64,000 bases of DNA from a virus, in IMG/VR virus record IMGVR_UViG_3300029998_000020, positions 9,130-73,129 of that record; one strand, 5' to 3'. The position numbers and the translations under genes were made by a program. The notes beneath the pieces were generated by a model that saw only the letters and a list, made by a program, of their open reading frames with translations, searched no databases and was not told the DNA's origin. Position 1 is the stretch's first letter. Each line of letters starts with the position of its first letter. Positions 7,487-41,290 of the stretch are shown here, one piece after another.

Positions 7487-7954
7487 ATGAGAAAAATTAT
7501 AATAAGCATAATAATTATGCTATTGACTTTTAGTGCTTATACTAATGCACAAAATGAACAAAAAAAATTCATAAATAAATTTGATGAATTATCTATATCA
7601 CTAAGTAATGAATTTAAAATACCAGTCAGCGTAATACTTGCTATTTCATTGTGGGAAAGTGGTTCTGGTACAAGTAGATTAAGTAGAACTAAACATAACT
7701 ATTTTGGAGTAAAACAAGGAAAAAATTATAAACGTTATGATAATGATTCTGTATCATTTAGACATTTTTGTGAATTCATTTCAAAAAGAAAATATTATAA
7801 AAAATTAACATCTAACAATGTAACTGATTATCATATATGGGTACTCAATATCAAAAGAGGAGGATATTCAGAAACAAAAACATGGGACAAACATGTTATC
7901 TCTATGATTGAAATATATAATTTAACTATGATTGATGATAAATCTGAAGAATAA
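7487..7954 (+). CDS. GH73 glucosaminidase (FlgJ-like) with N-terminal signal peptide; putative lysin
   Basis: AISLWESGSGTSRL...HNYFGVK...GGYSE; hydrophobic N-terminus. Confidence 0.8.
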   Translation: MRKIIISIIIMLLTFSAYTNAQNEQKKFINKFDELSISLSNEFKIPVSVILAISLWESGSGTSRLSRTKHNYFGVKQGKNYKRYDNDSVSFRHFCEFISKRKYYKKLTSNNVTDYHIWVLNIKRGGYSETKTWDKHVISMIEIYNLTMIDDKSEE

Positions 7955-7955
7955 T

Positions 7956-8111
7956 TTATAGATTATTTAATCTATTTAACTTTTCAGTTCTATCATTTTT
8001 TAATTTCTTTCTTTCTTCTTCTCTATCAAATATCATTTTAAATGTATAGTTATAAAATGCAGGATTTGCTACTAAGTCGTAGCTGAAAAGTTTACTTGAT
8101 TTTATTTCCAA
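7956..8111 (-). CDS. 51 aa mini-ORF: prohead-protease-like motif plus C-terminal tag; not in ORF track
   Basis: TTG start; MEIKSSKLFSYDLVANPAFYNYTFKMIFDREEERKKLKNDRTEKLNRLNNL. Confidence 0.6.
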   Translation of the reverse strand: MEIKSSKLFSYDLVANPAFYNYTFKMIFDREEERKKLKNDRTEKLNRLNNL

Positions 8112-8403
8112 TTTGCTTCAATTTCTTTTTTCTTAGATGCTTAACATATTCATTAGGAAAGTTATCATAGTCCAATACAGGCTTGTTTGAAGCTTCCTTT
8201 ATGACATCTAATTGCCATTGTATTGACTCAACTGGATCATCACATTCACTTTCATAAGATATTATAGTAATTGGATTTTCAGTACAAGCTTCAGGTAAGT
8301 CCGTTTCATCGTTATAATATACTTCATAAATACTAAAATGAACATCAGAGTATAAATCTGTTGTTATTCTTTTTGCTAAAATTCTATAATTCCAATGTGT
8401 CAT
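8092..8403 (-). CDS. Phage protein (WNYRI type) with C-terminal tag
   Basis: MTHWNYRIL...; ends HLRKKKLKQI. Confidence 0.7.
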   Translation of the reverse strand: MTHWNYRILAKRITTDLYSDVHFSIYEVYYNDETDLPEACTENPITIISYESECDDPVESIQWQLDVIKEASNKPVLDYDNFPNEYVKHLRKKKLKQIGNKIK

Positions 8404-8437
8404 AATAATTATATATCTATAAGATAAAATAGTTTAT

Positions 8438-8471
8438 AAAAAAAGTCAGAATAATTATTCTGACTTTTTTT
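8438..8471. terminator. Perfect palindrome / bidirectional terminator
   Basis: AAAAAGTCAGAATAATTATTCTGACTTTTT, identical to 14082-14113. Confidence 0.75.
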
Positions 8472-8480
8472 ATTGTTGTG

Positions 8481-8996: not shown

Positions 8997-9329
8997 TTAG
9001 ATTAAACTTATTTTATATCCTAATTTTTTTAGACATCTATAAAAATTGTCAATATCTAAAACTCCACTATTTTTTAGTAAAATATTAATATTATCTGTTT
9101 CCTTTTTTTCTTCAATTTCAAAATCTAATTGTCCTTTTACAAATCTCTCGACATCTGAATCATTAGGATAAGAATCTACAATTTCTTGTAAATCTTCAGT
9201 AGATAAATCATACCTATTCATCATCTCACCTATTTCTGATAAATAATCTGACATTGTGTAACTACAATAATCATCATCATTTACGAATTTTTTCATTTCA
9301 ATGTAGAATTTCTCTAATTTTGTTTTCAT
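8997..9329 (-). CDS. Hypothetical protein
   Basis: 110 aa ORF. Confidence 0.65.
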   Translation of the reverse strand: MKTKLEKFYIEMKKFVNDDDYCSYTMSDYLSEIGEMMNRYDLSTEDLQEIVDSYPNDSDVERFVKGQLDFEIEEKKETDNINILLKNSGVLDIDNFYRCLKKLGYKISLI

Positions 9330-13991: not shown

Positions 13992-14081
13992 ATGAAATAT
14001 GCAAAAATATTTGAATTGTATCATGAGTATGATATAAATTATGTGGGTACTCGTGGTGGCTCTCCTAATAATAAAAAATAA
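13992..14081 (+). CDS. 29 aa micro-ORF with MKY.K.FE N-terminus; not in ORF track
   Basis: MKYAKIFELYHEYDINYVGTRGGSPNNKK, preceded by TTTTATATA, followed by terminator. Confidence 0.4.
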   Translation: MKYAKIFELYHEYDINYVGTRGGSPNNKK

Positions 14082-14113
14082 AAAAAAGTCAGAATAATTA
14101 TTCTGACTTTTTT
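14082..14113. terminator. Perfect palindrome / bidirectional terminator downstream of dnaK
   Basis: Identical to 8438-8471. Confidence 0.75.
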
Positions 14114-14132
14114 ATGTTAATTATGTTAAATA

Positions 14133-21141: not shown

Positions 21142-21648
21142 TTATAATTTGCCTAAACTATTCAGTTCATTATTCAGTTTAGATCCAAGCAGTTCCAAAT
21201 TTTTCAGTTGATTTTTTACTTGATTTATACTATCATTAAAATCTTCTTTGATATTATTATTAAATTCTTCTATATCATCTTTATTTATTAACTCATCTAA
21301 TTTTTTATACAATTCTTCACGTTCCATATTGTTTGCATTATAATCAAATTCATCATTTTCAGTATCTTTTTCATATTGAGATTCATTTTCAGATATCTTT
21401 TTGTTTACAGATAGTATATCATCTTTTGTTTTATTAGATAATTCTTTAAATTTGAAAGTATATTCTTCAGTTATAAGAGGACACCATTTTGGTTTATATT
21501 CATTCTCATCTAACTCGATATAATGTTCATTTAATTTTAAATAATTTGATAATACGCATATATTTGTGTCTGGATTTACTGTTGCATCATAGTCATATTC
21601 TGTGTGACAAAAAGGGCAATTCAAGCAACCATTTACTGTTTTTTTCAT
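21142..21648 (-). CDS. Cys-rich (Zn-binding-like) N-terminus plus coiled coil
   Basis: GCLNCPFC...C.LS...PKWCPL. Confidence 0.65.
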   Translation of the reverse strand: MKKTVNGCLNCPFCHTEYDYDATVNPDTNICVLSNYLKLNEHYIELDENEYKPKWCPLITEEYTFKFKELSNKTKDDILSVNKKISENESQYEKDTENDEFDYNANNMEREELYKKLDELINKDDIEEFNNNIKEDFNDSINQVKNQLKNLELLGSKLNNELNSLGKL

Positions 21649-21815
21649 TTTAAGTTATTTATTTTTTCTATCTTTTTCTTTCTTTCTATTTTTGTTATTT
21701 TTCTTTTTAGTTCAGCAGCTAATTTTTCATCTATATCAAAAGATTCTGGATATAAACTTGCATAATCAAAATTAGATATACTATATAAATCTTCAAATTT
21801 CAGATTCTTCTTCAC
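21645..21815 (-). CDS. 56 aa mini-ORF: PolB motif-A-like peptide plus C-terminal tag; not in ORF track
   Basis: GTG start; MKKNLKFEDLYSISNFDYASLYPESFDIDEKLAAELKRKITKIERKKKIEKINNLK; TGA overlaps next ATG. Confidence 0.65.
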   Translation of the reverse strand: MKKNLKFEDLYSISNFDYASLYPESFDIDEKLAAELKRKITKIERKKKIEKINNLK

Positions 21816-40999: not shown

Positions 41000-41290
41000 T
41001 TAATGTTTTTTGTGTTTATAATATAATTTTTTACTATATTTTTCTTCTTGTTTTTTTCTTTCTTCTAATTTTTTATTAATTTCATTATAAGTGTTATTGG
41101 ATAATTTTTCCAAGTATTTCAACTTTTTCTTTCTATCTTCTTTTTTCCTTACTTGTGATTCGTATTTTTCTATTATTTTAGCAGTAATAGAATCAATAAT
41201 TACATAATTACCAGATCCGTTCAAATTTTTCTGGTGAATAATATTCGCAGCATTTAGTATTTTTTGATATAGTTCACTGTTTTTTGACAT
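41000..41290 (-). CDS. 96 aa protein: T4-gp23-like major capsid segment plus tag
   Basis: LYQKILNAANIIHQKNLNGSGNYVIIDS then RKKEDRKKKLKYLEKL. Confidence 0.65.
   Translation of the reverse strand: MSKNSELYQKILNAANIIHQKNLNGSGNYVIIDSITAKIIEKYESQVRKKEDRKKKLKYLEKLSNNTYNEINKKLEERKKQEEKYSKKLYYKHKKH

Follow-up and report, generated by a model that had tools for sequence, protein, structure and literature searches.

A conserved mini-protein gene of a peat megaphage, probably derived from a gp21-type prohead protease and predicted to be non-catalytic

The stretch of DNA analysed here (the window; 64,000 nucleotides, positions 9,130 to 73,129 of IMGVR_UViG_3300029998_000020) comes from a 92.7-kb IMG/VR virus record of about 24% G+C, with a CheckV completeness of 13%. 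Its gene content includes Hsp70, a split family-B DNA polymerase, PhoH, homing endonucleases, RtcB, and a collagen-like fibre, and therefore points to a very large phage. A 98%-identical copy of the product of the gene described below was found on a 711,471-bp contig, in agreement with the genome size of ~670 to 720 kb obtained from related fragments. The source is an uncultured ~700-kb peat phage, or megaphage. Among GenBank phages, blastn gave no match to the 4.5 kb around the locus.

The gene of interest, ORF51, lies at 7956..8111 on the minus strand and encodes 51 aa from a TTG start. It is an N-terminally shortened member of a protease-derived family of 71- to 82-aa proteins. The sequence-only reading had reported a TTG-initiated ORF at this place and quoted its translation, and the program-made ORF list contains it just so. 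From stop to stop the frame spans only 53 codons, with a TGA two codons ahead of the TTG. Residues 7 to 19 (KLFSYDLVANPAF; 8055..8093, minus strand) are homologous to the catalytic Asp strand of gp21-type prohead proteases, and their D12 is invariant in the family. Residues 29 to 51 (7959..8027, minus strand) form a C-terminal basic helix ending in the tag RTEKLNRLNNL, the family's most conserved part; the 8-residue tag core, residues 41 to 48, occupies 7968-7991 on the same strand. The product also includes LFSYDLVANPAF.

ORF51 adjoins an upstream partner gene of 103 aa (8092..8403, minus strand), which belongs to the "WNYRIL" family (phrog_21321). The two genes share a dual-coding overlap of 20 nt (8092..8111, minus strand), in which the TTG of ORF51 (8109-8111) sits in the +1 frame within the last codons of the upstream gene (…K-Q-I-G…), directly 3' of that gene's own tag, RKKKLKQI. 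Just upstream of the pair is a hairpin with a 17-bp stem and T runs on both sides (8436..8473), resembling a bidirectional terminator, so that the 103-aa gene and ORF51 look like one unit. On the other side, a convergent gene for a signal-peptide-bearing glucosaminidase (7487..7954, plus strand) ends 1 nt from the stop of ORF51, leaving no room for a terminator between them. The hairpin at 8436-8473 is a perfect AT-rich palindrome with a GTCAGAATA/TATTCTGAC core and flanking A and T runs; at least two copies occur on the contig, the other at ~14068-14128.

The length of ORF51 alone is not significant, because the 24% GC DNA of the 92.7-kb contig holds 443 ORFs of at least 35 aa. A short ORF with a TTG start, one of many of its size, might simply be a chance open frame in AT-rich DNA. 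Conservation at the protein level argues against this. An exhaustive HMMER search with the 51-aa sequence matched three small proteins, and a six-member profile recovered 37 family clusters of 51 to 82 aa from a collection of 5.8 billion proteins. The family thus comprises at least 37 small proteins, mostly of 71 to 82 aa, and wherever genomic context is available, the member lies on a fragment of a ~700-kb phage. The 37 clusters, a profile match to prohead protease at E 1e-17, and omega values below 1 (the latter two described below) rule out a chance frame, to which we give next to no probability. Comparative sequence data instead indicate that ORF51 is very probably a genuine protein-coding gene.

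ORF51 is tightly coupled to its upstream neighbour. In nine of nine lineages, including the window, the ORF follows a WNYRIL-family gene and begins with TTG in the +1 frame, 17 to 44 nt before the upstream stop and right after the RKKKL.x[IL] motif of the upstream protein. A small ORF follows the 103-aa gene in every fetched locus of close and middle-distance relatives; among the loci fetched, it was absent only after the most distant upstream homologue (78 aa). TTG occurs in every lineage because the last hydrophobic codon of the tag (NTT) and the next G form it, so the invariance of this weak start can be explained by the upstream frame alone. We lean toward a bicistronic message shared with the 103-aa gene, on which initiation at the weak TTG would be coupled to translation of that gene's last codons.

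The overlap also admits another arrangement, in which ORF51 is a C-terminal extension of the 103-aa protein, reached by a programmed +1 frameshift or cut off from it by a sequencing indel. In its favour are the 20 nt common to the two frames and an in-frame A AAA AAG heptamer within the tag of the upstream gene. However, all 35 homologues of the upstream protein are ~95 to 107 aa long and none is fused to the mini-protein, while the +1 frame is stopped two codons before the TTG in every lineage. The heptamer, moreover, would shift to -1 rather than +1, and the -1 frame stops after 8 codons. An indel error is ruled out by the recurrence of this layout in nine independent assemblies. With no fused homologues and a +1 stop in all lineages, we rejected the reading of ORF51 and the 103-aa gene as one frameshifted gene; its probability is very low.

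The 103-aa partner belongs to a family of widespread ~100-aa phage proteins with the motif WNYR[IV]L…YEV[HY]Y…KPVLDYDNFP. Its predicted structure (pLDDT 85) has a three-stranded sheet plus helices (beta-beta-beta-alpha) and resembles uncharacterised small proteins of the AlphaFold DB, one of them a DUF1902 entry. It ends in a tag of its own, RKKKLKxI. We also considered the 103-aa protein as the diverged N-terminal half of a split protease and rejected this at the sequence level (hhalign probability 0.1%). At 8118-8127 (minus strand), and likewise in all relatives, the tag codons AGA AAA AAG hold an in-phase -1 slippery heptamer, A AAA AAG. A -1 shift there would add ~8 residues before a stop and would not lead into ORF51, and the heptamer is probably a by-product of the Lys codons.

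Proteins of the family are built from two modules, a protease-derived beta-hairpin and a C-terminal helix of ~30 residues with the basic end motif R-x-E-K-[IL]-N-K-L-N-N-L. In the family alignment (A2), the long form consists of a strand (…NIFGIS.R..G), a turn (..DDG), a second strand (.V.I..I.SYD.VA.PGFSNA), a variable linker, and the tail ELERQELL..RKEKINKLNNL. The tail is nearly invariant, and R34, L37, R41, E43, K44, L48, and N49 (ORF51 numbering) are its most conserved positions; residues 41 to 51 of ORF51 fit the C-terminal helix motif R-x-E-K-[IL]-N-[KR]-L-N-N-L. AlphaFold2, run for the long form on the family alignment, predicted a beta-hairpin (residues 9-19 and 25-37) and a 30-residue helix (49-79) with a mean pLDDT of 84. 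Foldseek searches of the PDB with this hairpin-helix model and with the model of the 103-aa partner gave nothing usable. In the lineage of the window (the window, L005, L009/L025, and P0068), an in-frame deletion of ~22 codons has removed the first strand and the turn. The N-terminal segment …NIFGIS.R..G…DG.V.I is absent from the window's copy, and what is left in this short form is KLFSYDLVANPAF, the linker, and the tail.

The sequence-only reading had singled out YDLVANPAF as a prohead-protease-like motif, and profile comparison bears this out. We aligned A2 with an alignment of gp21-type proteases (A4) by hhalign, which matched mini-protein residues 10-53 to protease residues 133-174 with a probability of 98.9% and E 1.1e-17. 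At one end of this protease segment is the strand with the catalytic Ser140, and at the other the strand with the catalytic Asp; the window's copy covers only positions ~146-170 of it. Among the "head maturation protease" PHROGs, PHROG 207 was matched by 22 of 38 members and PHROG 3014 by 5, or 27 of 38 together. Full-length proteases of five huge phages were likewise recovered with the family profile (E 1e-13 to 1e-15), and ESM Atlas neighbours are small viral proteins, some of them carrying Peptidase_S77. By itself, the 51-aa sequence of the window matched nothing in Pfam or PHROGs. The link to proteases is visible only via longer relatives and profiles, because the window's sequence is too short and too reduced to score. 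A similarity to HK97-type (S78) proteases had been suggested as well and did not hold up: there was no Pfam match at E up to 10, PF04586 included, and the sole lead was an ESM Atlas neighbour at 0.84. Taking the profile evidence together, we consider a protease origin of the family almost certain.

The strand itself can be traced into complete proteases. The pattern [ST]YD[LFI]V[AS]x[PS][SAG]F occurs at more than 600 places in IMG/VR, and in 79 of 80 fetched loci the motif lies ~145 residues into an ORF of 600 to 850 aa or in an ORF cut by the contig end. The N-terminal domain of these 600- to 850-aa ORFs, used as the A4 profile, matches T4 gp21 (PDB 5JBL) with E 1e-9. In the Asp strand of A4, D157, V159, and P162 are invariant, and D12 of the mini-protein family, set in a strand of the form T/S-Y-D-x-V-A-x-P-x-F, aligns with D157. 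The PDB 5JBL chain has Ala at the A4 positions H80, the His of "DHP," and S135, the first Ser of "ISSR"; an offset of 19 residues relates these to residues 85 and 140. H85A/S140A is a catalytically dead gp21 mutant (PMC12991175), and the third member of the His/Ser/Asp triad is an Asp ~25 residues after the Ser (PMC5694885). In the protease alignment, the invariant D of the YD.V strand corresponds to that triad Asp.

Compared with T4 gp21 (PDB 5JBL; Peptidase_S77) and with the phiKZ gp175 / SPN3US gp245 type (MEROPS S80), the mini-protein family is homologous to residues ~133-174 (…ISSRAAG…DG.V.I..LFTYDLVADPGF.NA). All forms share the Asp strand with the proteases, whereas the equivalent of the catalytic Ser140 is shared by the long forms only, within GIS; the window's form has the Asp strand alone, the Ser strand being missing too. 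The residue after this Ser is an invariant S in the proteases and Q, K, or A in most mini-proteins. Every family member lacks the N-terminal ~120 residues that carry His85, or two thirds of the protease domain, and nothing in the proteases corresponds to the C-terminal helix and tag. The 51 aa of ORF51 thus fall well short of a complete protease domain of ~190 to 210 residues. Because the His-bearing two thirds are missing in all members, no protein of this family can be a protease, and the ORF51 product is predicted, with near certainty, to be non-catalytic.

The 600- to 850-aa ORFs (L021-L100 in IMG/VR; also L156:2126-4249 and L157:2126-4225) make up a very large protein family and combine the N-terminal gp21-type protease domain with a long acidic, repeat-rich part, so that they appear to be protease-scaffold fusions. 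They end in a basic amphipathic helix (…AKRFKK, …ILERFKNL, …IQKRMRRW). Two complete GenBank phage genomes, of 634 kb and 642 kb, carry a ~700-aa fusion of this kind, and neither the mini-gene nor its 103-aa partner was found in them. The phage's own protease was not found with PHROG 207, PF20034, PF03420, or the A4 profile in the 92.7-kb record and six related IMG/VR fragments (15 to 256 kb, covering 2 to 36% of the genome), where the mini-gene was the sole match.

A protease origin would also fit a gene that no longer does anything, namely what is left of the 3' end of a protease gene after its duplication, functionless and drifting, with a frame that is open only by chance and through linkage to the upstream gene. 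The Ser strand is gone from the short form, the TTG start is weak, and the constraint is only moderate. Among the three short-form sequences with DNA, dN/dS was 0.25 to 0.38 (Fisher p 0.0007, 0.018, and 0.020), a measure limited to close relatives because distant comparisons are saturated; the upstream 103-aa gene is under stronger constraint, at 0.12 to 0.21. The copy in L016 (3293-3500) has a frameshifted tail, with …INKLNKLN continuing in another frame, and an omega of ~1 against the others. This copy is probably decaying, and the mini-gene can therefore be lost.

Against a relic stand several features of the other copies. The ORF is open in eight of nine lineages, across which the upstream genes are only ~50 to 60% identical to each other. 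The tail helix is nearly invariant across the 37 clusters. Omega lies significantly below 1, and each of the three short-form pairs has its highest number of changes at third positions, an excess that is clear in two of them. The deletion that produced the short form is itself in frame. We also compared two near-identical genomes, L018 and L109, which are ~98% identical over 5.2 kb (95 to 100% nearly throughout) and whose upstream genes differ by 2 nt. Their most divergent patch is the mini-gene (L018:3275-3590 versus L109:2501-2817), where 60-nt windows over the gene and ~70 nt beyond it are 78, 73, 50, 88, and 83% identical. Both alleles are intact and open, and they fall into different allele groups, each seen elsewhere in the family. 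Judging from these alignments, the patch looks like a replacement by recombination with a diverged allele. Such a swap of one intact allele for another is the reverse of the decay expected of a neutral relic in genomes otherwise ~2% apart, and we consider a relic unlikely. Weaker divergent patches were seen at L109 1498-1617 and 3838-4300.

The C-terminal tag is shared with small proteins of the phage that are otherwise unrelated, and the sequence-only reading had proposed such sharing. The pattern R..K[LIFM]..[LIFM] occurs in the last 16 residues of 15 of the 151 predicted genes of the contig, a per-position rate 26 times the internal one, and in only 1 of 292 shadow ORFs. In ORF51 it is RTEKLNRL, 3 residues from the C terminus and thus within the last-16 window. 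The tag is a peptide-level feature and not a DNA repeat, because its codons vary between genes (TTA/TTG/CTT/CTC, AGA/CGT) and nothing is conserved past the stop. We rejected a nucleotide-level origin (a repeat, a promoter, or an initiation region) as its main cause, given the variable codons, the lack of a conserved flank, and shadow ORFs without the tag.

A tail HMM of the mini-protein family retrieves other tagged genes. Two ORFs had been put forward as having the same layout as ORF51, those at 21645 and 41000, and the likeness is secure for the first and weak for the second. The mini-protein at 21645-21815 (minus strand) is built in the same way, with a short strand that bears an Asp and comes from a core enzyme, followed by a helix and then R-K-x-K-I-E-K-I-N-N-L. 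It differs in its front, FDYASLYPE, which resembles motif A of DNA polymerase B, in its GTG start, and in being found in only two clusters. It matches the mini-protein family by hhalign with E 5.6e-9 over the helix and tag, and the family profile finds it in its own genome with E 3e-6; the secure similarity is the tail helix. As for its being a mere paralogue of the protease-derived family, the invariant core NFDYASLYPES fits polymerase motif A better. In the ORF at 41000, the R..KL..L motif is internal rather than terminal, and the match to the mini-protein family is weak (hhalign probability 10%). With ORF51 as the third, well-supported case of a core-gene fragment joined to the tag on this genome, the tag itself becomes the more important target.

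Taken as a whole, the explanation we moderately favor is that ORF51 is a real, protease-derived, non-catalytic two-module mini-protein. The first module is a copy of the hairpin of a T4-gp21-type protease (MEROPS S77/S80 kind), from the Ser140-equivalent strand to the Asp strand. In the window's lineage the in-frame deletion has taken the Ser strand and left the Asp strand and the helix. More tentatively, we regard it as possible though not probable that the mini-protein acts by binding rather than by catalysis. The strand or hairpin may dock onto the edge of a beta-sheet in a gp21-type protease or in a prohead-core partner, either the phage's own or that of a co-infecting rival, and the tail helix may supply a shared address or an oligomerisation function. 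ORF51 would then be a dominant-negative or regulatory micro-protein of head maturation, in this phage or in a competitor.

The link between prohead protease and CBASS invoked in the sequence-only reading is present in the literature (10.1101/2023.05.21.541620; PMC12991175). Prohead protease activity is a major trigger of CBASS immunity (PMC12991175). The fragment might be pictured as an immune decoy, a mimic of the prohead protease that diverts binding by CBASS or other host sensors away from the real trigger. That the protease is a CBASS determinant, that sibling mini-proteins carry fragments of other core proteins, and that the allele-swap hot spot would suit an arms race are all compatible with a decoy. 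The fit is nevertheless poor, because CBASS responds to cleavage by the active protease and not to the presence of the protein: T4 gp21 needs its active site, and thus proteolysis, to activate CBASS, and the sensor is cleaved, not merely bound (PMC12991175). A fragment without the His cannot mimic a proteolytic signal. In addition, Pfam and PHROGs showed no defence-related neighbour or homologue, and nothing beyond the protease. We regard a decoy as improbable.

The tail helix suggests yet another role, as a capsid (prohead-core) address that would bring ORF51 and the other tagged small proteins into the head, as internal proteins or as ones to be ejected. The C-terminal region of the giant-phage protease has been inferred to target the protease into the prohead (PMC5694885), and the protease-scaffold fusions end in basic amphipathic helices (…AKRFKK, …ILERFKNL). 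Yet the tail of the mini-proteins aligns to no part of the full-length proteases, the hhalign match ending at residue 53, and the tagged genes lie among small early-type genes rather than in the structural module. A capsid address is, in our estimate, likewise improbable.

The sibling mini-proteins allow a broader proposal, which we consider speculative and rather unlikely: a megaphage class of mini-proteins, each made of the active-site strand of a core enzyme or capsid protein (protease in ORF51, polymerase and capsid in its siblings) and one shared helix, that would serve as dominant-negative or regulatory binders of their parent machinery. Such fragment-plus-address proteins might hold in check free prohead-protease activity, the CBASS trigger, or might poison the head maturation of rival phages, and the allele-swap hot spot would then be the trace of such conflict. 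Returning to ORF51 as a binding protein, an interaction with the protease or with the prohead core would make it a capsid-maturation regulator of a new kind. Because prohead protease activity triggers CBASS, the published T4 gp21 / EcCdnG assay would offer a direct test of such a regulator.

Eukaryotes have dominant-negative "microProteins," or small interfering peptides, which are shortened paralogues that retain a surface for interaction and titrate the parent protein. The logic shared with the ORF51 family, by analogy of mechanism only, would be that a fragment of a functional protein, without its catalytic or DNA-binding part, is kept as a separate small gene. Closer to the present case, the giant phage SPN3US encodes gp117 (with gp118), a diverged, truncated prohead protease paralogue (PMC5694885). 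It sets a precedent for giant phages with additional protease-derived genes that are incomplete and probably non-catalytic. In SPN3US gp117 most of the domain is retained and the 3' end is missing, whereas the mini-protein family is the reverse: the 3' third only, in 51 to 82 aa, with a foreign tail and away from the structural genes. In the literature searched, we found no conserved 50- to 80-residue gene that joins a protease Ser-Asp hairpin to a tail common to other tiny proteins. Non-catalytic prohead protease paralogues in giant phages are thus already known, and the 50- to 80-residue form of hairpin plus shared tail is not described in that literature. A further paralogue was seen on a 322,902-bp IMG/VR contig (L107:1189-1695), where a stand-alone 168-aa protein lies beside a 798-aa protease-scaffold fusion. 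Its DHP motif is replaced, leaving no catalytic His, and it has VASR in place of ISSR, with no catalytic Ser, so that by its sequence it is a probable pseudo-protease.
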